A stretch of 64,000 nucleotides of DNA, from NCBI GenBank assembly GCA_951406725.2, contig OX597817.1, positions 69,068,001 to 69,132,000 on the forward strand, in the 5' to 3' direction. Below, in pieces: positions 7,390-55,989 of this stretch. The notes under the pieces are model-generated. The model had not been told where the DNA came from. It was given only the letters and a program-made list of their open reading frames with translations, and searched no databases. The position numbers were made by a program, and so were the translations under genes. Every line of letters starts with the position of its first letter. The first letter of the stretch is position 1. Origin of the DNA: Octopus vulgaris. Its lineage: Eukaryota.

Positions 7390-7600
7390 CAGTTGTTGTT
7401 GATGTTTAGTCCCAGATCAGCCTACATCAATCCAACCAAAAGTCACACACAAACCATGACCATCTTGTCTTCTGAGATGTAGTTCATCCCAGACTACATT
7501 ATCCACTCTGTCCTCTCTTTTTTAAAATCAACAGAAAATGATTTGACAGTGATTTGGTTGCTACTTCTAGCAACCATATATAGAGGTTAACCTCACCTGT
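7390..7600 (-). mobile_element. Family E short retroposon (~200 bp, (AAC)n tail)
   Basis: GTTGTTGTTG tail, TTTAGTCCCAGATCAGCC...CCATGACCATC...GACTACATTATCCA...GATTTGGTTGCTACTTCTAGCA; about 14 related copies or fragments in the window. Confidence 0.65.
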
Positions 7601-8235
7601 TTATAATGACGTCTGTCACCTCTCCTGCTATAGTTGCCATTGGCTTTTCTATAAGAGGCTCTTCTGTACATCAATATGTTTTAATTATAATTCTGCCCAG
7701 CAGTTATGTCTTTCACTATAAGTTTACTATCAAAAAGAATATCTTGCATGCTCGTGAACTGCTCAAATAATTATTTCCCTTAGGTCTATACTATAATGTC
7801 ATTTTTCCTTGCAGCAAAAGTGTCTTGCACAAATATAGAAAGAAATAAAGCTAGAGCTATATGAATTTTATATATTGAGGGAAATGAAATATAATATATA
7901 CATGTTTATAAATGGTATAAATTCTGGTAAGAAGATGTATTAAAATGTTTCAAGACACAAACAATAAGCAATAACATGGAAACTCAATATGGAGATGATT
8001 AGAATTATGAAAAAAAAAACTCATTTATTTAGTAGTTAATCAGTTCATATTGCAAAATATCCATTGAGTAATATACTATTTAAAAGAATTTATTTGAATA
8101 ACCATTGTACACATGTTCCATCATTTCTTAAGCAATTGGGATCTAAATAAATATTTAAAATATCCCACCCAAAATGTTTGTTTTTACACATTGAAGAATA
8201 TGTTTGTTAAATGATGATGATGATGATGATGATAA

Positions 8236-8299
<64 letters not shown>

Positions 8300-9103
8300 A
8301 TTCACATATATACATACACTTACATATATGTAGGTATGTATGCATGCATGTATGTGTATTTTTGGATATTAGATGGGTTTAAATAGACAAACAGACAAAA
8401 GACTGATAGATAGGTAGATAGATAGAAAGATAGATAGATAAATAGATAGATAACTTTCTTTTATTAGCCACACAGGGCTGAATACAGAGGGGACAAATAC
8501 AAATGCAGAGCTTTTCTTTTCGAGGGTGGAAAAAAATAAAAAATGTAAGATTGCGATTACGCATACATATAGATGTGTGTGTGTATGTTCACATATATAC
8601 ATACACACATATGATATGTATGGATATTAATGATGATGATAATGTGTGTGTGTGTGTGTGTGAAAACATATATATACATGTGTGTGCTTCCACGTATGTA
8701 CATATATGAATACACACATATATAAATATGTATGTGTGTATATGTGTCTATCTAGTCCTAACTTTGGCATCAATTCTGCAAATTTGTTGCAGAGGGGTCA
8801 GTTCACTAAATCAATATAAGGTATATATGTCATCTACACTAGAAGAAAATGAAAGGCCATGTCAAAAACACAAGAATAATTTCAAAACTCAAAATATAAA
8901 GAATGTTGTAACTGAATGTTGTAAAGAATTTCATTCAGCATCAATATTTTTGCTATTCGGCTGCTCAATATATAAAGATGTTATAATTGTTTAACCCATG
9001 GTCAATCCTGATTGAGCAGATCGATGAGGCAAGGCATTCCAAACAGGATCTTCCTGTCTTTTTTCTGGGATTATATGTATGTATGTAAATAAGTATGTAT
9101 GTA

Positions 9104-11510: not shown

Positions 11511-11667
11511 AAAAAGGGGCAAGCAACAGGTTGCTTAGCCACCTGTGAATTACATGGATATGTTGTATGTGGAGTCTTATTTGTAGAAAATAGAAATATA
11601 TAGTCTTTGACTGCTATTTCTAATTTTTCGGTATGTGGCTAAGCAACCTGTTGCTTGCCCCCTTTTT
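11511..11667. repeat. MITE-like element with ~32-bp terminal inverted repeats
   Basis: AAAAAGGGGCAAGCAACAGGTTGCTTAGCCAC / GTGGCTAAGCAACCTGTTGCTTGCCCCCTTTTT, flanked by TA-rich sequence. Confidence 0.8.
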
Positions 11668-12340
11668 ATATATATATGTATATATATAGACACACACATA
11701 CACACACACTCACTTACACACACAAAGATGTGCTTCTTTCAGTTTCTATCTACTAGATCCACTCACAAGCTTTGGGTTGGCCTCAGAACAGACTTGCCAA
11801 AGGTGCTGCATGATGGGACTGAATTCATAACTACATGATTCAGAAGCAAGCTTCTTAACCATACAACTATTCCCAAGAGATTTGAATTAAGAATGCAGAG
11901 ATTCCAAACAAGTGCTACAAGGCATTGTATCCAAGCTCTACACAACTCTGCTGATTCTCTGCCCACATTTACCATCAACCAAATTCTACCCACAAAGCAG
12001 TAATCAGCCAGCCTGGGGGCTATGAACAGAAGATTCTAGACGCAGGATGCCATACATTAAGACTGAACCAAAAACCATATATTACTGTGAAATAAACATC
12101 TTGGGCCATACTGGTATGGAGTCCAAAAATAATTGTTACATTTACCAGTAACATGTTAGGGGATTGTTATTTAGAAAGACTACACCAAAATCAGCATGGA
12201 ACTAAGCTATCATGTGAAAAGAAAATCAATAACCATGACAATTTCACAGAAAAAGAAACATAAAAAGAAACAACAATTTATTTATTAAATGAAAGAAACA
12301 TTAGCTTTATGTCTTCATCATCATCACCACCACCATCACT

Positions 12341-13155: not shown

Positions 13156-13509
13156 ATGCATAAGTGGTACAGCAACATCAAAGGAAAATTAACCGAGAAG
13201 ATAGCTTTCGTGTGCAGCAGATGCACAGGGGCAATAGACACCACGGATACTCAGAAAACAGATTCCATCACACTCCAGGGAAAGAAACTAGAAGTAGCTG
13301 ATAGTTTCTGCTACCTAGGTAACCAAGTTAGTAGTGGAGGTGGATGCTCAGAGAGTGTCACCACCAGAATAAGAATAGCCTGGGCAAAGTTTAGAAAGCT
13401 TCTACCCCTACTGGTGACAAAGGGTCTCTTGCTCAGAGTAAAAGGTAGATTGTATGATGCATGTGTGCAAAATGCCATGCTTCACGGCAGTGAAACATGG
13501 GCTGTTTAG
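13156..13509 (+). mobile_element. RTE-clade LINE fragment (C-terminal reverse-transcriptase region)
   Basis: ORF carries LEVADSFCYLG, RIRIAWAKFRKLLPLL, KGRLYDACV and HGSETW motifs typical of RTE ORF2, preceded by a CxxC remnant. Confidence 0.9.
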
Positions 13510-16460: not shown

Positions 16461-16734
16461 CTTGCCTGTGTGTGTGGGTTTTTTACCCCCCTGCAACTGT
16501 TTCACATAAACATCAACTACATTGGTCTCAAACTTTCAAAAGTTTTGGGGGCACAGCTGTTTTCTCCATACTAAATCATTGAAAATAATTATATTTCAGA
16601 TAAGGTACTATCACTTATTATGACTTTTACTTATTTGGATGTCATTTTATCTAAATTTCAGAGATATTTGGCTATTATTTTTAGTAAGTCAAACTGTGAC
16701 AGAGGTATAGTCACTAATTTACAAAAGGTCAGGT

Positions 16735-16870
16735 TAGAACCTTAAAGATGTTTGACTGCAATGTTGGTAAGCTGAATGACCACATGGAAACTCTTTCAAT
16801 GGTATTCAACTCGGTGGAGACATAGTGGAAATAGAGAAACAAATTTGTGACTTGATCATAGTTATTTGGC
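16735..16870 (-). mobile_element. Decayed CR1-like LINE 3' fragment
   Basis: Minus strand resembles the 3' end of the other CR1-like copies in the window. Confidence 0.35.
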
Positions 16871-23566: not shown

Positions 23567-25138
23567 TAGTGGTGCAATTTGATTTTATATATTCAAGTTG
23601 TAAACTTTTATATATTCAAGTTGTAAATTATGAATTAAGATATATATCAAAATAAAGAAGATTTCATGAGCTTTAATATGGTAACATATCAATTTTACAG
23701 TGTAACAGCAACATATATTAATATCATCTTAATTATTGTAATTTATAGCACCATTTAATTTAGGAGCAATTTGTTAAATTTCAGTTTTTTGCTTTAAAAA
23801 GCTTATTCTGAGATTAACAAACAAAAAAAATTATTATTATAATAATAAGCTCACACATCAGTATTTGGTTGGGTATCCAAAATTACTTAATACAGCTTTG
23901 CATCTGTGAAACATAGAATTGTTTACATTGTTTATTTCTGTTTCTAAGATCTTTTCCCAATTTTGGCTAATAATGTTTAAAAAATCATTCTTATTCTTTG
24001 ACTTACTACTTTGCACAGCTCTACCCAACCTTTCCCAAAGATTTTCTATGGGAGATACGTCAGGTGACTGCACTGGCCATTGCGTCAACTGAACTCTCTT
24101 AGACCTAATGTAATCTCTGACTAGGTGCGAGGTGTGTTTTGGATCATTGTCATGCTGGAAAGTTCAAGATCAGCCCAAATGCTTTTGGGCATATGGAAGC
24201 ATAGTCTTATCTAATATTTTTAGATAGGACTTACTGTCCATAATGCCCTTGATTCAGATTATAGGACCGACACCTTTTCCAGACAAGCACATCCACACCA
24301 TCACACTTCCACCACTGCATTCTTACATACTTCCTGCCATCACTGTCGAACAAGTTGAACTTTGACTTGTCCAACCACAACACATTTAGTCAATCTGCTG
24401 GACTCCAATTCAAATGCTCTTTTGCAAACTGTATTCAGGCACATCAATTTTTTAAAGAAACATATAGCTTTTTTCAAGAGACTCTGCCCTAGAAGTCCAA
24501 ATTCTTTGAAATGTTTTTTTTTATGGTGGACACGCCAATGGCAAGTCCATATTTTTGCTGAATTTCTTTTAAAATGTCAACAGCAGTCATTAAAATTTTT
24601 TTTGGAACAGTCTATGAATGTATCTATCCATTCATGCCATTGTTTCTCTTGGTTGCTCAGGTTGAAAGTGGTCTTTATAATCATTAGTATATAAAGATGG
24701 ACAGCTTTGTAGGCAGCTGTTTTAGAGCATCCAACTTCATTTCAAATAGCCTTATGTGACCATTTCAGCCTACTAAGCTAAACAATACTCATTCTGGTGT
24801 TAAGTTTTGTCTCTTACTCATCACAACTATTAAGTAACTTAGAAATTGTAACAGCATGCAAATTACCCGACGTTTATATTAATCAATAAGGCAAAAAGAA
24901 TGCAATTTTGCAAATCATTCTTCAATTAAATGGCAATGTAACTTACGCAAAATAAAGTTTATTTTTAATTTAAAATTGATATATTGATGTTATGCTGTAA
25001 AGCTGTATACCATATTAAAGTTTGTGAAAATTTCTTTATTTTGATATACATCTTAATTCACAATTTACAACTTGAATATATAAAAAATGCCATTTTAACT
25101 TTAGTATACTAGCGTTCTTAAATTAAATGGTACCACTG
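23567..25138 (-). mobile_element. Full-length but decayed Tc1 (DD34E) transposon, ~1.57 kb, IR/DR type
   Basis: ~200-bp inverted termini (AGTGGTGCAATTTGATTT / AAATTAAATGGTACCACTG, shared TATATTCAAGTTGTAAATT block) with an inner direct repeat of the end motif; minus-strand transposase motifs. Confidence 0.92.
23858..24830 (-). pseudogene. Tc1 transposase pseudogene
   Basis: VLWLDKSKFNLFDSDG, GGSVMVWMC, FQHDNDPKH, WPVQSPDVSPIENLW, GYPTKY*; 34 residues between the second D and E; stops and frameshifts upstream; 5' boundary approximate. Confidence 0.9.
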
Positions 25139-28430: not shown

Positions 28431-28537
28431 AAAAATATGGAATGCTTCACAAATTTGTGCATCATCCTTGCACAGGGGGCCATGCTAATCTTCTCTGTAT
28501 CATTCCAATTTTAGAATATGTACCGCCGTAGCAGTAC
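28431..28537 (-). pseudogene. RNU6: Full-length U6 snRNA retrocopy
   Basis: Minus strand GTACTGCTACGGCGGTACATATTCTAAAATTGGAATGATACAGAGAAGATTAGCATGGCCCCCTGTGCAAGGATGATGCACAAATTTGTGAAGCATTCCATATTTTT; ACAGAGA box and AGC triad intact, several CpG-decay substitutions, no TATA box near -30. Confidence 0.95.
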
Positions 28538-28910: not shown

Positions 28911-28949
28911 CATATTAATTCACTCTGGGCCTCAGGAAAGCGCTCTTCT

Positions 28950-29095
28950 TTAGCCCTAGGTTAGTCTGACCAAGCAGGACTGTGATAAAGGGCATCTGAT
29001 AAAAGGCACATTATCTAATGTGCCTTTTTTTCATTTGAAGGGAGTTTAACTGCTATTTCTAGCAGATTCAATAATCATGTAGAGGCTTATCTGTA
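28950..29095 (-). mobile_element. Family E retroposon
   Basis: TTTAGCCCTAGGTTAGTCTGACC...ACTGCTATTTCTAGCAG...CATGTAGAGGCTT. Confidence 0.65.
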
Positions 29096-29867
29096 GATAC
29101 TGGTGATAGATACAGTTATAGGTGGAAATATAGACATGTTCAGAGAAGTAGTCATTTCATTATTGCATTTATATTTTTAGTCACAGTGTATCCAATGTGT
29201 CCCTTCTTTTTTTTCATAAGACGGTGAATTATTTTAAATGACATTTTTGAGCAAGTGAAATGACTACAAAGAGAGAGATAGACAAATTGACAGACAGAAA
29301 CTCTTTTGACTCCTACCATAGAATGCAATGGGAGTTGATTTTATGTGATACACCATACAAAATGCCATGGTAGACTGATTCTGAAATATTTGTGGCTCTA
29401 TATCCCTTCCAATCCCAGAAAGTTCCTGAGTTAACTAGATAATAAAAATGCCATGGGAGATGATTACAGGGAATCACAAAAGAGTAACTTATAGATCAAG
29501 CACTTCAATAGAAATATCTTCATGTAGGCAATAATGATCTCTGTAGAATGGTTACACAAACTGAAATCAATTAACACCTGCTGACACACAAAAGGTAGAA
29601 ATATTTTGTGGCAGGGTGGAGGTTGTGGAGTACCCCTACATTAGGCTGAGGTCCTGACTGGTGTTGCTGTTGTTGTTCTTGATTAGCCCCACTGAACCCT
29701 ATTCAAATAAGTTAAATAAACCAGGTGAATCTACTTGATGGTTCAGTCATTACCATGCTGTTTTTTATTTTTTTTTTATTTTGGATTTTTCTGAGATATT
29801 GCGTTTCTAAGAGTGGTAACTGTTAATCTTCCTCAACAGAAAAGAAAAAAAAAACTTGCTCAAGAAA

Positions 29868-31718: not shown

Positions 31719-32832
31719 ACAGCCTTCCTATATCCCTTCCTATCCTAGAGAGTTCCTGAGTTAACTAGATAATAAAAATTTCATGGAAGATGATTACAGA
31801 GAATCACAAAAGAGTAACTTACAGATCAAGCACAGGATCCAACAAACCACAGGAATACACTGCTCTGGTGAGATCTCTACAGCTGGATGCCCTTCCTAAT
31901 GACAACCCCTTTACAGAATGGTTGCTTTTTTTTTACCTTGTGACACTAGCACTAGTAAGGTCACTATATCTGATGAATAGACAGGATGGTTATTGCTGAA
32001 ATATCATTGATCATAGGCCTGTTGAGTCAAGACTGACCTGGGGCTAAACAACAACATCAAAGAAAGGTGTATTAGATAATGCAGTCTTATTTCTCTCACC
32101 TTAACATGTACTCACTGGCTGTAAGCAATGACTTCACTCAAGAGTAACATTTGCTTGCAGTCCACTGAAAAAGAGTGCCCAAACTCCCTAACATGCCTTG
32201 ATATGCTATGTGGGTTTAATTTGCTTCAAGATTTTTTTTTTAATATAAATATATCCAGCTTGTTTGTTTTGCAAGTATAGAAGAATAGACATTAATGATG
32301 ATGATAATGCACATACCTGTAGCAAGCTAATTAAAAGTGTATTCAAATAGAGGGTGATTGTAACAAAAATTTAATAAAAAATACAAATTTGGGAAGGAGA
32401 ATTTTAAGGACTAACTTTATATTCATTATATTGACAAGTAAGGGAGACAACTTCACTGAACTTGATAGTGATGAAGAAGTCACTAATGGTGTTTTTATAA
32501 GAAATAAACCTCATTGTCCATTTTTGCTTTTCATCATTCCAGGCCTGGTCAATAGAATATCTATTCTTCTCTTGGTCCATCCTTGTGTATATCAGCTATG
32601 TTGTACTGTAATAAATGTCACAAGAAACCCATGGAGAGCATCCCATTCCCCAGAAATTGGGAAGAGTTGAGCAAAAAGCTTGTAATTATTTCTCATGGAG
32701 ATTCTGTTATTTCATCCACAGGAACTGTCCATAAACAGACCAGAGTACAGAACAGTATAGAACATAAATTAAGAAACTAAATAAAGATAGATATATAAAA
32801 AGTTCAGTGTGTTTAATAAATATCATCACATC

Positions 32833-32864
<32 letters not shown>

Positions 32865-32967
32865 CTGTGTTGGTCTCCCATCACTGCTTTACAATCCTAT
32901 GAATCTGGGTTTACTTCTCAACTTGGGTTCAGTTTTACTGCATGGCACCTTTGATTCCACTAAACAG

Positions 32968-33004
<37 letters not shown>

Positions 33005-34234
33005 TTCCTTAAGAATCTGTGTTCCATACTAGTATGGGAATTGATTTTATGTGATACATCATACAAAATGTCATGGTAGACTGATTCTAAAATATTTGTG
33101 GCTCTACAGCCCTTCCTATATCCCTTCCTATCCTAGAGAGTTCCTGAGTTAACTAGATAATAAAAATTTCATGGAAGATGATTACAGGGAATCACAAAAG
33201 AGTAACTTACAGATCAAGCACAGGATCCAACAAACCACAGGAATACACTGCTCTGGTGAGATCTCTACAGCTGGATGCCCTTCCTAATGACAACCCCTTT
33301 ACAGAATGGTTGCTTTTTTTTTTACCTTGTGACACTAGCACTAGTAAGGTCACTATATCTGATGAATAGACAGGATGGTTATTGCTGAAATATCATTGAT
33401 CATAGGCCTGTTGAGTCAAGACTGACCTGGGGCTAAACAACAACATCAAAGAAAGGTGTATTAGATAATGCAGTCTTATTTCTCTCACCTTAACATGTAC
33501 TCACTGGCTGTAAGCAATGACTTCACTCAAGAGTAACATTTGCTTGCAGTCCACTGAAAAAGAGTGCCCAAACTCCCTAACATGCCTTGATATGCTATGT
33601 GGGTTTAATTTGCTTCAAGATTTTTTTTTTAATATAAATATATCCAGCTTGTTTGTTTTGCAAGTATAGAAGAATAGACATTAATGATGATGATAATGCA
33701 CATACCTGTAGCAAGCTAATTAAAAGTGTATTCAAATAGAGGGTGATTGTAACAAAAATTTAATAAAAAATACAAATTTGGGAAGGAGAATTTTAAGGAC
33801 TAACTTTATATTCATTATATTGACAAGTAAGGGAGACAACTTCACTGAACTTGATAGTGATGAAGTCACTAATGGTGTTTTTATAAGAAATAAACCTCAT
33901 TGTCCATTTTTGCTTTTCATCATTCCAGGCCTGGTCAATAGAATATCTGTCACATTTTGGCTCAATTCTTCTCTTGGTCCATCCTTGTGTATATCAGCTA
34001 TGTTGTACTGTAATAAATGTCACAAGAAACCCATGGAGAGCATCCCATTCCCCAGAAATTGGGAAGAGTTGAGCAAAAAGCTTGTAATTATTTCTCATGG
34101 AGATTCTGTTATTTCATCCACAGGAACTGTCCATAAACAGACCAGAGTACAGAACAGTATAGAACATAAATTAAGAAACTAAATAAAGATAGATATATAA
34201 AAAGTTCAGTGTGTTTAATAAATATCATCACATC

Positions 34235-36465: not shown

Positions 36466-36742
36466 CAGCAACAGTAAAGGTGTTGCCTCCAGGATCATTG
36501 GGTCTTCTTTTTAGACACAGTCTATCCTGGTCTATATTGTTAATTAGTCTGAAATAGTAAAGTGAATGTGTGTATGTGTGCATGTGTCTGTGTATCTGTG
36601 TGCATGTGACCTTAGAGTGATTTCACAGTTATTTCTAGCAGGTTGAGTTGCTATTTAGAAGCTTCCACACCAGCCTCATATGTGCAATGTTCATATTGAT
36701 TGATGCATGTAAAAAACATTAAAACCCATTACTGCTGCAGTA

Positions 36743-37062: not shown

Positions 37063-39474
37063 GGCAGTAATTAACAGCTAGCAGCAACATTTTGTCAAGT
37101 CTTTTCTGTTTTTCTCATTTCTCATTTTTGACATTTAAAAAATAATTTTAATATCTAATACTGTCCCCCAGGTTCAAGCCCTAAGCTAGCTAGACATTTT
37201 GCTCTAAATATTTCAAAATGTTTTGCTGGAAAATAAATACACCCCCACTAGCACCCTTATCCTCACCTCAGTCACTTCACAGTTATTTCAGCTTAGTCCC
37301 ACATGAACTCTGATCAAGTAGACTTTATGATCAGAGACATTCCAACCATAACCATCACTTTTATTTATTCATTATTTTGTTTTTAGAGGTGTATCAGGAC
37401 TATGTTGTTTAATGTGTTCCACCCCTTTTAAGACAGTAGGGTGTTATTTGAAGGAAATTTGGCTGCTTTAGTTGCGTAGGAAGGTAATAAGAGAGGCCTT
37501 AAAAGACATTGTACATCATAATTTCCTGCCCATTGGTAAAGCATTTACTGAATACCCAACTCTGACGAACCATTAAATTTATGCTAGCAGGTGGAAAATA
37601 AAATATGAAAATGGAACATAAAAGACAGGAATAAGATGTCATTTCAAAAGAAATCACACACAGGGGAATTCCAGGAAAAAATCTTCATGAATACAGAGAA
37701 AAGAAAACAAGGAAAAAATAAACGGAAGCAACTTACTGTAACTGAATTATTGTATATCTATAAGACTTCTACCCTTATTGTTACGCGTATTCCTTCAATC
37801 GTTTGTGAATTTGAATTAGACATACAAGAGTGAGTAAGGATATAAAACAGCTTTTGTTAATATTGCTATTAATCCTGAAATATATCAATTATATACTAGC
37901 CATTTATTACTGAAATAGATAGTTTTTCAGGCAGGACTCTCTGAGTGTGTGCTGACACTGTCCACTTAGATTCCCAATTAAAGCAATTTTGTTTCACTGA
38001 TATCACTAATGCCTCTTTTCTTTTTCCTTTCTCCCTCTCTTTTTTTTTTTTTGTATGTATAAGACATTAGTAATATTGCAACGTCTCGTTTATGTTTGAC
38101 TAAAACATATGTGCTTCATGGTTAATTGTTAATGATTCGATTTTGTTTTTCTTATTTGTATAGCTTCAAATAATTATACTTAAGCTATTAAGACAGTTTA
38201 AGTTATTGAGGTAAGCCTAGCAGCTAACTGTATCTCATAAAGCCAATTATTGCTAACATACGTTGTAAATGGCATGGTTGGACATTGTCTTTCCGTTTTT
38301 GTTCATTGAAAATAACTAAGTACTCAATATTCCTATACACAATGGGATGGTCATGACTGGAATGTCTTTAATCAGAAGCATGCTTGATCAGATTTGACTT
38401 GGGACTAAACAGCAGCCACAGCAAAAGCAACAATCTTATATGAATGAAAGCAAAGCTGTCATAAATATAAACAAGAAATTGGGGAAGGGAAGGTACTGTG
38501 ATCATGCTAAGGTATCATCATCATCAGTTTACATCTGCTTTTCATGCAAACATGTTGGACATGTCCTAATGAGTGGAGTCGGTTCTCATTTAGAGTTACT
38601 GAATACAAACTTACACTCACACACACAATCACACACACACAAAAGTACAGGCTTCTGCAGTTTCTGTTTACCAAATTCCATTCACAAGGCTTTGGGAAAC
38701 CTATAACGCTATGTCAGAAAACATTTACTGAAGGTCGTATTGAACCTGAAACATCAAGACTCTGTATGTCATTGTAAACAAAACATTTTCAAAAATCAGC
38801 CATATTTTTGTGATCAATTTCAATACAGAAGTGATGCAAACATAGCTGAAAACTCCTTGCAACTATTTCAAAATTTTTCCACAAATTAAAATAAAATACA
38901 AAAAAAAAAGAAAAAATTCAAATAAAATATTGTTTTTGATTAGCTTATTTATATACAGTCTTGTAGGCAAATAGCAAGAATTTCTAAAGCATGAAATTAT
39001 TTGGTGTCCTTTGGTGCTTTAAGGGTGAATTCTAATTAAAGTATACAGTAATGTATTACTTTACAATTAGGTTTATGACATTTTCTGTGACATAGGAAAT
39101 AAAATATTTACAAAGTATATAATCAAAGCCATAAACATGCTGTGTTGTATTCTATTCAGCTAGCTACAAATAATTTAGCATTTCAAACACCTTGAGCTTC
39201 TGTTTTTCAGCTTCAGTGAGACTGGCTAACACAATATTTGCCTATCTAATTCACAACCTGTTAGCATATATTTCACGACACTCCAGTATTCAAAGGCTTG
39301 ACTAGATGACTACTTGACCATTAGCTAGTGTAATGTATCAACTTCTAAAATGTTTTATAAGTAAACAAGTGTGTTGTTGTATACTTAACACTTTAGCATC
39401 AATAAAGCTAATGATGTTACGCTTACTTTTCATTAACACCTTTTACCTTCATAAGCACAGGTATAGCCAGAAGT

Positions 39475-39660: not shown

Positions 39661-40340
39661 ATTTCCTTGTCTTGATATAGCGTAAGAGTTACAAACAAAT
39701 GTTGCTGCCACACCAACAGTGTCATTCATTTCCAAGCTTCCATAGAAACATGTTTGGCTATGAGGAAAATGATTCCTCACTTGGAAACAGGTGATGATAG
39801 GCAATGATAGTACATTTAATTATAGAAGCACATTTAATTATAGAAAATCTGCCTGAATGAATTCTGTCAGATGCAGTTAAGCATGGGGCAAAAGGACCTT
39901 AAAGTGACAATGGTGATGAATATTAACAGTAAACGTGATCAAATGATGAAACTAAAACAGCTTTAAGCTCTTGTTGTTAGTGTTGCTGTTGTTGTTGTTG
40001 TTTAACCACAGGTCAATTCTAGTTATGTTCAAACACATTCCAGTCATGAGTCAATATATTTCCTCATAAGTATAACTAAAATGAGAAAAAGATCAGCATC
40101 AATTTCAACAATGGATATTTAGTTATTTGACCCTCTAAAGTACCTGCTCATTGAATTAGTATGCAAGTGGCTGAGTACTCCACAGATATATATGTATCCT
40201 TAACATAATTCTCAAGTAGAATCAGCATGACAGGGTGTGTGATAATGCTGGACCACTCAATTCTAGATCAGCAGCAGCTGTTCATCATGGGTTGATATTG
40301 GCTGTTCTGTTCAGACTTCTCCAAACAAAATGTCTTAGGA

Positions 40341-40955: not shown

Positions 40956-42392
40956 TCACTCCACTCTACTGAAAGAAGGGGCAATTTACTCCCTCTTTTA
41001 TGGTACAGTACAGCACCCACATCGGTGGAAGGCCATAAAAATCTATCAATATATTTGACAGGCTTCTGCACAGTTTCAACCACCCATTTTCTGTTTTCTG
41101 TCACAAGGCTAGGGCCGGCTTCAAGCTTTTGGTAAAAGACACTTGCTCAAAATACTATGCGATTGAATCTGATATGTGATTGTAAAGTAAACTTCAAAAC
41201 CACCAGACATGCTGTGGTCAAGAACTAAAAATACTTTATGGAAGGACTTTATCAATTTTTAGTCAGTACAATACCACCTGAAGGAGATTCAGTTGCTATT
41301 TCTAGCAGGCTAAGCAACCATGAAAAGCACATCTTCACCCTGTTTTTTAAGATTATCTCCCTTTCTCATTTCAAGTTGATGGTCAATGCCTCAAGGCATT
41401 TGTTTACTTTACTCAACAACAGAAGACTGTTTAAATAAAATAAGAATTTATCTTGTCTAGTATTTTGCTATACTTTTATTTATCTTTCTTGCCCAAACTC
41501 AAGCCACTAGCCCCTCAGCTATTTCTCTGAGCCACTTTTTTGTTTATACATAATACACACACACACACACACACACACATACAAACACATATCTCACTCT
41601 CTCTCTCTCTTTATATATATATATGTGTGTGTGTGTGTACATATATATATATATGCACACACACAAATATATACATGTTTATATATGTGTATATATGCAT
41701 GTGGGTGTATACATGTGTGTGTATATATATATATATATACACACACACACATCCATATCTGTATGTGACTATATAGACACACGCACACACATTCACATAT
41801 ATATATATAGATTGATACATACATATATACATACATACACACATGTATGTATATGCAAACAGATTGGTATATATTGAAGAATATATACATACACACATGT
41901 ATGTATATGCAAACAGATTGGTATATATTGAAGAATACATCTATGCATACAAACATGCATACATTACATACACACACACATATAAATTGACATGTTGAAA
42001 TATATATCTATGCATCTATATGTTTATACACATGTATGCACAGACATGCACACACAAACACACGTGTTCACACACACAAACAGAGAGTCAACTAGTACAA
42101 TGTCACTTTACCTAAGAGATTAATTCATGTTCAAATGATATAATATAGATGGTAACGACATACTTAAATCTGAAATTCTCAACAGTCTTTTAATCTTGCT
42201 TGTATTTTTTTTTGTTCCAACCCCCTTGATCTTGTGATTATATTTATTTTTATTCCTTTTTTCCATTCTCTAAATATAATTCAGAAATGGAGATTTATAT
42301 GAAACTACAAATAAATAAATAAATAAATAAAAACTACAAAAATCAAAATATAAGTCAAAATAAAAAAAATAATAAAAAAATTATTTACTTAC

Positions 42393-42515: not shown

Positions 42516-42624
42516 ATCACAGTGTACATCAGAATATATACATAAATGCATAAATAAAGAATATTAAAGAACACAAGAATACGACCTATAACTCTTCCTG
42601 AAATAATTACACACAATTGATATT

Positions 42625-42750
42625 TAGCCATCGAGGGAGGGTGCCTCTCTGGAGTTGGTCTGTATGTTAGAAACAGCAGTCAAATCTCCCTCAAGCTAAA
42701 TCATACTGACTTAAAAGACAAAAAATAGACAAGGGACAATATGGTTGTAG
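42625..42750 (+). mobile_element. Family E retroposon, 5' part
   Basis: AGCCATCGAGGGAG...TGTTAGAAACAGCAGTCAAATCTCCCTC. Confidence 0.6.
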
Positions 42751-42764
42751 AGATCTTTTATCGC

Positions 42765-49899: not shown

Positions 49900-50790
49900 A
49901 TGTGAGCACTTCAATGCAAGAATATTGTATCAGAGCCAAAAACAGTTATGCAAGCTGGCTTCATGGTGGTTAACTGTATTAAGCAGTATGTATGGTTTTG
50001 TTTCAGTGTTGCCATGTTTGGTCTATGTTAGGTTGGTGTTGAAAGTAAGGCCTGGTATTTTGGAGTTTTTTGCTTTTTGGCAGGGAGGGGTACAGTATAT
50101 AATGTGTATATTGGGTGTTAGATTGTGTACAGCTAGATCTATTGTAAAAAGGGGTTTTTTTGTGGGGTAGAGGCTGTGTTGAATACATACAACACCATAG
50201 GTATGACTGAAATTATAGTACTCTCAGAATTCATATGGGTTATGACTCAGTGGTTAGAGTGTCAGGTAGTGAGTTTGATTCCTGACCTGGACAATGTGTT
50301 GCATTCTTGAGCAAGACACTTTATTGTCCTGTTTCTCCAGTTCATTCAGCTGTAGAAATGAGTTGCAATGTCACTGGTGCCAAGCTGTATCGGTCTTTGC
50401 CTTTCCCTTGGATAACATTGGTGGCACGGAGAGGGGAGAGTGGTATGCATGGGTGATTGCTGGTCTTCCATAAACAACCTTGCCCAGGCTTGTGCCTTGG
50501 AGGGGAACTTTCTAAGTGCAAACCCATGGTTATTCATGACTGAAGGGGTTTTCTTTATAGAGTGTGTGATCGCACCTGCATATATCATGAAATTTGTTAT
50601 TGTTGTTGTGGTGGTGGTGGTGGTGGTGGTGGTGGTTGGTGTAGATGTGTCTAACATACATAGATTGAAGAAAGCAGGTGATAGGATTCAACCTTGTGGG
50701 ACTCCTATCTTATGTGTCTTCTTTCTCATCTTGATTGTCATTGCTTTCATAGATATTTGTTCTATTATGGCAAGAAATCACTAATCTGAG
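49900..50790 (-). mobile_element. Decayed I/Jockey-group LINE RT fragment interrupted by a SINE C
   Basis: Minus strand IGVPQG*ILSPAFFNL (~50660-50710) and KIPGLTFNTNLT*TKH (~50010-50060). Confidence 0.7.
50235..50575 (+). mobile_element. CORE-type tRNA SINE (family C)
   Basis: TGACTCAGTGGTTAGAGTG; TTCTTGAGCAAGACACTTTATT; body shared with the 35540 copy. Confidence 0.8.
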
Positions 50791-51083
50791 AGCTAATTAG
50801 TCTTGATAGTGCTTTACTAGAGTTCCTCAATGATAACTGAGACTTGTCAAACATCTGCCAGTGTCAATAAAATTAATTTAAGCTCTAAAGGGAGAGAAAT
50901 AAGAAAGCCTGTTGTATTATTCGCAAGTAGGAAGAATAAAGAGAATAAAGAAACAATCTATTTGTTCATTAAGTTAACGATACATCTCGACAGCAGCGAA
51001 AATATAAGACATCTGATTATCAACTTGAATAAGTAAAGAAACTAGTCTATTCAAAACTCTACTTTATCAAATAGAGAGAACCT

Positions 51084-51290
51084 GAATCAATGAGGGAGTC
51101 ATGATTAGGTCGTCTGTTTCGTCCAGAAGTAGTAATCAAATCTTTTAAAAATTATTCTCTGCTATCTTTAAAAAACACACTGGATATTGCAGTTCTAGAT
51201 GCTAGAGAAAACCAGGATGGGCATGGTTGGAATGTCCCTGATTGTCCCACTATTCAATCAGTGCTGAATCCAGATTAAATAACAGTAAAT
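51084..51290 (+). mobile_element. Family E retroposon, near full length, diverged
   Basis: CAATGAGGGAG...CAAATC...GGATGGGCATGGTTGGAATG...ATCAGTGCTGA...TAAATAAC. Confidence 0.55.
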
Positions 51291-54467: not shown

Positions 54468-55109
54468 TTATAATTCAAAATCCAAAATTAGGGAATGGTG
54501 TACATAAAATCCAGGTTTCATATTTTTCATAGATAGCAGAACCTTGGAAATAGTGATTGTCCAAATGAGGAGTAATCCACTGGGGTATAAGTGTACTAGA
54601 GTATTAGTTTGTATGTATGTATGTATGTATGTATGTATGTATGTATGTATGTATGTTTATATACAAATTGGCGTGTGGGGTTTGTTAAAGTACTTTTTGT
54701 GGAGCAGTAGGGAAGATGTGTATTTCAAGGACTGAGATTACAATATACATCTTTAATATGCTTCTTTTTCACAAATATCAGCACACAAATCTATGAGACA
54801 GTCTTTACACTGTCACTCAACCAGTCAGAGACGCCTGGAAAATCTCCCTGCAACCCTTCCTCTCATGTTAAGAAAATGGTACATTGTCTAATGTGATCTT
54901 GGATTAGGTATACTTAGGTAAGAAAAAAAAAAGAAAACTTAAGTAACTGGAATATCCTTGATCCCATATCTGCCTGAAAAGGACTGACCCTGGACCTAAA
55001 CAACAGCAGCTGAAGCAACAAGGAAGGTTTTTAAGTGGTTACTAAATTTGCTAAACATAGCATTGAAATCTACTTCGATCACATTTTATTATATTAGAAA
55101 GAGTAAGCC

Positions 55110-55322
55110 AGTGAGCTGGCAGAATCGTCAGCACACTGGATGAAATGCTTAGCAGTATTTTGCCTGTTGCTATGGTCTGAGTTCAAATTCTGCTGAGGTT
55201 GACTTTGCCTTTCATCCTTTCGGGGTCAATAAATTAAGTAGCAGTGAAATACTGGGGTTGATGTAATCGACTATTCCCCCTTTCCCAAAATTTCGGTCCT
55301 TGAGCCTATAGTAGAAAGGATT
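55110..55322 (+). mobile_element. SINE B nested in a family E element
   Basis: GAGCTGGCAGAATCGTCAGCAC...CATCCTTTCGGGGTCAATAAATT; ATTATATTAGAAA repeated on both sides. Confidence 0.85.
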
Positions 55323-55989
55323 ATATTAGAAAAGGCACATTGTCTAAATAATGAGGTTTTAGATTATCTGTACAGGTGAGTTGTGATTGGAACACCTTTG
55401 ATCATAGGTCTGCTCAATCTGAGCTGGCCTAGGGTTAAATAACAATGAAGGTGGCAATCATGTAGCACCATAAATTTGATTGGTTGGTTCTAAAAAAGAA
55501 ATTTTTTTTTTAAATCAAGAACTTTGCTTGAATTGTGGTTTACACCTATATATGTGAGGTTGCTAATGCTCAATCTCAGATTCAGGAGTAGTTTAAAATT
55601 TTCGTGAACATTTGATGGTTAAATAGTCAAGCTGATCCATTAAGATGTATTCCCTCCTATCCTTCTTGTAACATTGCAAAGATAGAGTAACTTAGAGAGA
55701 AAGAGAATTAGGTAGAGAGAGAGAGAGAAGAGAGAGAGGGAAAGGGTGAAAGAGGGTGAGAGACTTTCTGACAAATAAATTAATTTGATTTATCAGCTAG
55801 CTGGCACAGGGAGCTGACAGTTTTTCTTAATACACAACCAGCAAGCCTGCAAGAGTGGCTTGTGTCAGTTAGTAAAGAAGCCTAAGTAATGCTTGCCTTC
55901 ACAGAAACAAATGCTGTCAGAGCATGAAATGTAGGATTCATTTACATGCATCTCTGTAAAACATCACGCTCAATCTATGTAGAGGCGTG

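Follow-up and report, generated by a model that had tools for sequence, protein, structure and literature searches.

A predicted HDV-like ribozyme head in an abundant octopus retroposon family, reconstructed from decayed copies

The locus at 29035-29100 raises the question of whether a family of short octopus retroposons begins with an HDV-like ribozyme, as the first-pass annotation of this DNA proposed. Our analysis of the window, by which we mean the whole 64-kb stretch of Octopus vulgaris DNA under study, supports this proposal for the core of the head at the level of the family, but not for the focal copy itself, which lacks the 5' start of the element and is decayed. On the minus strand the focal copy retains the 5' strand of P3 (29084..29086), a 7-nt L3 (29077..29083), the 3' strand of P3 (29074..29076), an 8-nt linker (29066..29073), an intact P4 hairpin with a 6-bp stem and a GAAA loop (29050..29065), J4/2 (29045..29049) and the 3' strand of P2 (29037..29044), the last placed by sequence and by the loose ends of contigs, followed by an internally deleted body and 3' end (28943..29030) recognised by profile and by its tail. 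The linker is predicted to provide 6 nt of the P1 3' strand, which contain two CpG sites, and 2 nt of P1.1. In the family L3 carries the U, C and G that HDV-like ribozymes keep, and here the G has decayed to A at a CpG; the family J4/2 reads CCAAA, with the second C as the predicted catalytic residue, and both Cs are T here. Most paralogous contigs stop at 29084-29089, and the focal copy is therefore without its 5' end; upstream of ~29088 it no longer matches the family, with the whole 5' strand of P1 and most of that of P2 gone. With the middle pair of P3 broken and the L3 G and both J4/2 Cs mutated, this 5'-truncated, dead fragment cannot be a working ribozyme, so that the question concerns the master element from which such copies came. 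Two observations concern its surroundings. The body of the focal copy contains a near-perfect inverted repeat at 29001-29028 that is better paired than elsewhere, for which a template switch is possible, and a U6 snRNA copy (28431-28537, minus strand; 97.1 bits, full model length) lies about 500 bases away.

The repeat family and its copies in the window

The family is real, and its abundance, its tail, the absence of a tRNA gene and the shared hairpin and pairing letters are established. The unit of ~240 nt consists of a head, an A-rich body and then an (AAC)n tail, the last borne out by tail reads as the annotation had it; its claim that the family has no tRNA head agrees with the result of ARAGORN, which detects no tRNA. 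At least 10 heads are present in the window, which is AT-rich and microsatellite-rich, and a window scan for the GAAA hairpin (P4) motif returns 3 sites at <=2 mismatches versus 0.04 expected. Contigs matching 28930-29330 at 80% likeness number 490, 527 and 515 in three DNA runs with three organism labels, counts that include some contigs sitting on other repeats of this interval, and the depth of paralogous contigs over it is highest at 29028-29097. A further run, presumably of RNA, contributed 15 contigs, which carry no information on strand or expression level. Extrapolation from at least 10 heads per 64 kb to a genome that we take to be 2-3 Gb suggests a copy number of the order of 100,000. 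The exact family motif has 0 matches in the genome, viral and metagenome contig collections, and ORFs that translate the head by chance give three repetitive chance matches in octopus proteins and otherwise none.

A profile search recovered all eight previously listed copies, at the places and on the strands claimed for them, together with further fragments. When each fragment was left out of its own profile, 15 of 18 were found at E<1e-5, with the caveat that the two pieces of the focal copy help find each other; fragments 16812, 16660 and 29230 were weak (0.016, 0.074 and 0.33 in ascending order). Seven of the eight listed copies reached E<1e-5 in this test, the copy at 16660 just E=0.33. 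The copies are 22-42% diverged from the reconstruction described below, consistent with the earlier remark that every one is diverged. Absent from the earlier list is a full-length decayed copy on the plus strand (54786..55010) that ends in an (AAC)n-like tail, and directly after this tail stands another copy (55011..55449, plus), broken at ~55105-55320 by another repeat family. Near full-length copies occupy 51083..51289 (plus) and 7390..7603 (minus), the latter with a head deletion and an (AAC)n tail. A head and part of the body are found at 42624..42751 (plus), where the head is the best preserved and its CpG is kept, and at 41223..41344 (minus); a head occurs at 36605..36677 (minus), and 16643..16806 (minus) is made up of two heads side by side (16730-16806 and 16643-16720), both strongly decayed, with weak left-out E values of 0.016 and 0.33. 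The copy at 37293..37467 (minus) is without most of its head. Among 3' fragments, the one at 31951..32058 (plus) bears an (AAC)n tail, and the profile also places fragments at 33341-33451 (plus), 38343-38419 (plus), 8987-9065 (minus) and 39985-40049 (minus), with weak ones at 29666-29768 and 29185-29274 (both minus). The simple-repeat (AAC)n tails and the several 3'-only fragments are what is expected of a SIDE or a bipartite LINE derivative made by target-primed reverse transcription.

Other repeats touch these copies. The segment ~31770-34180 was recently duplicated in tandem (period 1389 bases) and carries identical tail fragments (31977, 33366) and near-identical ORFs (32335, 33724). A MITE-like element with long terminal inverted repeats (~11520-11670) has a 17-nt near-match to the P4/J4-2 region; 12 nt of its repeat recur in the linker of the copy at 41285, which could bias the letters of that copy.

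The reconstructed head and its HDV-like core

The head was rebuilt from a manual alignment of ten window copies. CpG was preset at four sites at which the copies show both CA and TG, and the ancestor was then estimated with context-dependent rates (outside CpG, C>T 25%, G>A 29% and A>G 4%) and without use of pairing. The reconstruction contains a 3-bp P3 with one G.U pair closing a 7-nt L3 with the conserved U, C and G, as in HDV-like ribozymes, followed by an 8-nt linker that contains two CpGs, then by a P4 of 6 bp, a J4/2 ending in CAAA and a 4-bp P2. In 500 bootstraps P3 was recovered 499 times, J4/2 496, P4 471, P2 417 and L3 371, and the posterior of L3 is 0.955. An eleventh head, found later in the copy at 54786 (54789-54850), agrees with the reconstruction at 35/62 nt. 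The loose ends of contigs agree with it on both flanks in the 8 rows listed (38-95 contigs per row, three DNA runs; 190 further rows exist). Their consensus over the three runs reads CCAAA in J4/2, which gives the catalytic C followed by N-R-A before P2'. The 6-bp P4 hairpin stands between P1.1 and J4/2, with 73% of cells paired in the 10 decayed copies. In the catalytic register P2 has 4 bp with one G.U pair, and a slipped register of 6-7 bp competes with it.

The 5' consensus given earlier mostly holds, except that in the 8 rows listed the stretch that precedes P3 has one A fewer, reading GAGGGA and then GCC. The pairing GAGGGAG/CTCCCTC that had been cited for the copy at 42630 therefore borrows a G from P3: its letters are present, but as a 7-bp pairing it belongs to the slipped register and not to P2. 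The GCT/AGC form of P3 in the copy at 36620 is in the sequence as described.

The constraints on U, C and G in L3 and on CRRA in J4/2 come from a published HDV descriptor, as given in PMC6326823. The reconstruction fits a descriptor of P1, P2, P3, L3, P4 and J4/2, whose core was reached by 0 of 30,000 dinucleotide shuffles, and in random sequence there were 25 core matches in 6 Mb, none with P1. When a P1.1 pair was also required, again 0 of 30,000 shuffles matched, and 10 Mb of random sequence gave 2 core matches, neither of them with P1. In both cases the descriptor was drawn up with the reconstruction already in view. A simple majority consensus does not satisfy P1, P2 or L3, and the result therefore depends on undoing CpG decay. 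The earlier assignment of P2, P3, L3, P4 and J4/2 stands in the rate-aware reconstruction and beats shuffles, whereas a canonical 7-bp P1 is missing in all registers tried; the descriptor check likewise succeeds for the reconstruction, but the copies examined give no Rfam ribozyme match.

Several results do not favour the fold. In the 10 copies 64.6% of cells are paired versus 64.7% in shuffled alignments, with a score of 0.188 versus 0.209, and sliding the partners gives 27-51%. Covariation, which had been proposed as a check, does not rise above shuffles in these copies, and RNAalifold gives no structure from their alignment; since the copies decay neutrally they are not expected to show covariation, and its absence lends no support either. 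The minimum-energy fold contains the slipped 7-bp P2 and a competing hairpin. No ribozyme family occurs among the 150 of 354 Rfam matches listed for the window, nor did two copies scanned singly match one. Hammerhead, twister, pistol and hairpin cores were not seen by eye. One further property of L3 is that in the family head its last letters form the palindrome ACGU, which in crystals of the CPEB3 ribozyme gives rise to inactive dimers.

Similar cores occur among known and candidate HDV-like ribozymes. The consensus line of Rfam RF02682 (HDV-F-prausnitzii) carries 12 letters identical to those of the octopus head across P3/L3/P3', and its P1' is immediately followed by an A, giving a U22-A P1.1. 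Scanning with the core pattern returned 14 viral and 65 metagenome loci; none of the metagenome loci has a complete fold, and one viral locus does. This locus (L011:114-181, minus strand; IMGVR_UViG_3300024331_000152, a 143-kb viral contig) has a complete canonical HDV-like fold with a 7-bp P1, a 6-bp P2, a U-A P1.1 and a CGAA J4/2; the scan asked for the P3, L3 and AC letters, not for the surrounding P1, P2 and P4. It scores 26.7 bits against the RF02682 model, below the gathering score of 44. Wider viral scans gave the full fold in 1 of 86 matches with a 7-nt P1', which is L011 again, and in 0 of 57 with a 6-nt P1', numbers too few to weigh much. RF02682 and L011 share with the octopus head the P3/L3/P3' letters and the A after P1', and L011 alone of the two also has the C that follows this A in the family. 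They differ from the head in having all 7 bp of P1, with G as the first base, and in a GGCUAA or CGAA J4/2, and they are bacterial or phage sequences outside retroposons, whereas the octopus head sits in a retroposon.

The L1Tc/ingi clade of trypanosomes provides another comparison. According to PMC3185411 and PMC4035085, the Pr77 ribozyme of this clade heads the short non-autonomous retroposons NARTc, RIME and SIDER, the arrangement proposed here. The L1Tco and TbSIDER2 cores match the octopus head at 11 of 13 nt (supplement of PMC4035085). The likeness extends to a cut before C (predicted for the octopus head; L1Tc-clade ribozymes cut before C1, as given in PMC4035085), to a one-pair P1.1, predicted here and described for L1Tc in PMC3185411, and to a GCCAA or GCTAA J4/2. 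Pr77 differs in its 7-bp P1, in having A22-U instead of U22-A, in a longer J4/2 and in its trypanosome hosts, and outside the core no similarity was seen.

P1, P1.1 and the 5' end of the element

The main difficulty of the proposal is P1. The strand that leads from P3' to P4 counts 11 nt where the canonical fold has 12, and a 7-bp P1 can therefore not coexist with P1.1 in any register. In reconstructions from 9-11 decayed copies the best registers offer either an uninterrupted run of 5 pairs or a bulged helix of 7 pairs that leaves no P1.1; none contains an unbulged 7-bp P1. In the register that we prefer, position +1 would be a C that precedes the conserved GCC by three bases, P1 would consist of 5 contiguous pairs and then a C.C mismatch, and P1.1 would be a single U-A (or U.G) pair next to a C.C. 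The P1 and P1.1 that could previously not be resolved are thus probably there in a short form: after CpG decay is undone a 5-bp P1 and a one-pair P1.1 can be placed, but a 7-bp P1 is absent. Read as CGA, the 5' end makes 5 contiguous pairs with linker positions 6 to 2, which by chance occurs in 0.75% of cases at a fixed offset and in 8% at any of 11. Linker position 7 finds a pairing partner in the third position of L3 (U22) in 9 of 9 copies, which requires a 6-nt P1'; by our own post hoc count the chance of this is about 0.04. A P1.1 of similar economy is found in two solved fast-cleaving ribozymes, in which it consists of U:A plus C:U or U:U, as reported in PMC13635239.

The letters at the 5' boundary bear on the predicted cut site. 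Among the 8 loose-end rows listed, C stands at -3 in 6 and T in 1, and the letter at -4 is background in all 8. Y-R-A occurs at -3..-1 in 4 of 7 window copies versus a background of 0.068, and CGA at these positions is favoured ~50-100-fold over CAA or a random flank and is as likely as TGA. Moreover, the first base of the 55011 copy is -3 and directly follows the last triplet of the preceding tail. The 5' signal thus ends where P1 would begin, which we count in favour of the predicted cut site. The element had been taken to begin with P2; its true start lies ~10 nt upstream. The weakest point is the second pair of P1, whose G at -2 is present in 2 of 7 window copies and in 0 of the 8 loose-end rows listed; with A at -2 the descriptor loses P1. 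This P1 pair depends on how CpG decay is undone.

Other placements of P1 were considered. The bulged 7-pair register formed in the 10-copy reconstruction and in 8 of 10 leave-one-out reconstructions, but in 168 of 500 bootstraps. It is better kept in the copies, with 26/42 pairs versus 19/42 for the preferred register; once the eleventh copy is included, its first G has a probability of ~0.2 from window data, and G is present in 6 of the 8 loose-end rows listed. We rejected this register for the bootstrap frequency and for leaving no P1.1. The upstream 7-mer of the 16812 copy as a P1 strand was also rejected, being absent from the loose ends, and a 6-position P1 with the C.C at position 2 was tried and set aside.

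Origin of the head and its implications

A 7-bp P1 was the test that failed, and therefore we do not file the head as a canonical HDV-like ribozyme. The family is probably a SIDE/RIME-like element with an HDV-derived head, and the explanation that we favour as a whole, with a probability of about 0.58, is a predicted self-cutting HDV-like head combined with LINE-driven retroposition. Its two parts can be graded separately: the head very probably descends from an HDV-like ribozyme, and, given this descent, the master element was likely active. By this explanation, the element would be transcribed within host transcripts or tandem arrays, and the head would fold and cut co-transcriptionally 5' of +1, setting the 5' end of the element as in R2 SIDEs and in trypanosome RIME, NARTc and SIDER. 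A LINE reverse transcriptase would then use the 3' end and the (AAC)n tail in target-primed reverse transcription, by analogy with R2 SIDEs, NARTc/RIME/SIDER and bipartite RTE, Ingi and Vingi derivatives as described in PMC3414825, PMC4035085 and PMC5786205.

Precedents for such an architecture are known. As far as PMC3414825 describes them, the R2 and R2/R1 SIDEs of Drosophila have a ribozyme head, a LINE-recognised 3' end and no polymerase III head, as proposed here; they differ from the octopus family in being rDNA-specific, in few copies and with a pyrimidine-rich L3, and in that cleavage has been shown and the partner LINE is known. The bipartite non-autonomous RTE, Ingi and Vingi elements are likened to the family by being short, ORF-less and composed of LINE 5' and 3' ends, and RTE and Ingi carry 5' ribozymes (PMC5786205); the family motifs were not found in the supplement of that paper. 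Mollusc LP-SINEs have a LINE-derived, non-tRNA head of ~70 nt, for which the authors note an analogy to L1Tc, but this head differs in sequence from that of the octopus family and no ribozyme fold is proposed for it in the accessible text of PMC4758252. A 10-nt stretch on the opposite strand of the family body equals part of the LP-SINE head in reversed orientation, probably by chance. In the literature searched we found no paper linking octopus with an HDV-like ribozyme, none with the P4 motif and nothing relevant for cephalopods; the family may already carry a name, supplements having been covered in part.

The window also holds pieces of other mobile elements. A retroelement-like ORF piece lies at 13156-13506 (plus), its nearest named relatives being Octopus bimaculoides proteins at 68-84% identity, and a retroelement protein fragment at ~50640-50720 (minus); by their motifs, both are presumably RTE-like. 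Neither was seen to end in the family tail, and no LINE coding sequence was seen by eye directly upstream of four tail fragments. The sole Pfam match among the 60 ORFs scanned (180 listed) is a Tc1/mariner-type DDE_3 transposase fragment (23861-24163, minus; E 4e-08).

Three other readings of the head have to be weighed against the favoured explanation. The head may have come from the 5' ribozyme of a LINE into a master that had already lost one base of P1, folded into the slipped 7-bp P2 and no longer cut, its sequence being kept as a promoter or protein-binding leader like Pr77 in some inactive trypanosome SIDERs. Such a relic would account for the P1' that is one base short and for the perfect 7-bp slipped P2, which moves J4/2 out of the catalytic register, and it has a parallel in the same 77 nt that also act as a promoter in L1Tc and in the several inactive SIDER heads recorded in PMC4035085. 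What counts against it is that the predicted cut site falls on the conserved 5' boundary and that the L3, P1.1 and J4/2 letters of the reconstruction are still those of active ribozymes, and we consider it somewhat unlikely. A more radical reading, which we judge decidedly improbable, is that of a non-catalytic three-way junction unrelated to HDV, made of a 7-bp closing stem, a GGTC/GACC hairpin and the GAAA hairpin, with the likeness due to chance and hand alignment. This junction equals the minimum-energy fold, as computed by a program that does not allow pseudoknots; A or G at linker position 7 fits its GGTC/GACC hairpin no worse than P1.1, and the lack of covariation also fits it, but the descriptor fit and the match of P3/L3/P3' to RF02682 and the L1Tc-clade cores are left unexplained.

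That the family is a tRNA-derived SINE with a truncated head is highly improbable. The idea draws on the dominance of tRNA-type SINEs in octopus genomes, as stated in PMC8967140, and on the reconstructed linker, which can read GTTCGA and so be taken for a B box. This GTTCGA lies only ~30 nt from the 5' end, however, and the final C of the B box is T. By eye, judged against the A/B box consensus, the reconstruction contains no T-arm stem and no A box, and cmscan, like ARAGORN, returned no tRNA.

What the favoured explanation would mean depends on how short a P1 can be. The known short retroposons with a ribozyme head are low-copy parasites of fly rDNA and of trypanosomes, and a dispersed, very high-copy case in a cephalopod would show that SINE-scale expansion is possible in the absence of a polymerase III head. 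Should a ribozyme whose P1 lacks one base still cut, searches with descriptors fixed at a 7-bp P1 miss a natural class of ribozymes. As a bolder speculation, which we hold to be unlikely, an active HDV-like variant with a P1 of just 5-6 pairs may head an octopod family of the order of 100,000 copies, the least decayed of which still cut host pre-mRNAs; if this were true, few animal sources of self-cleaving RNA would be richer than octopus genomes, and the 7-bp P1 search rule would be relaxed.
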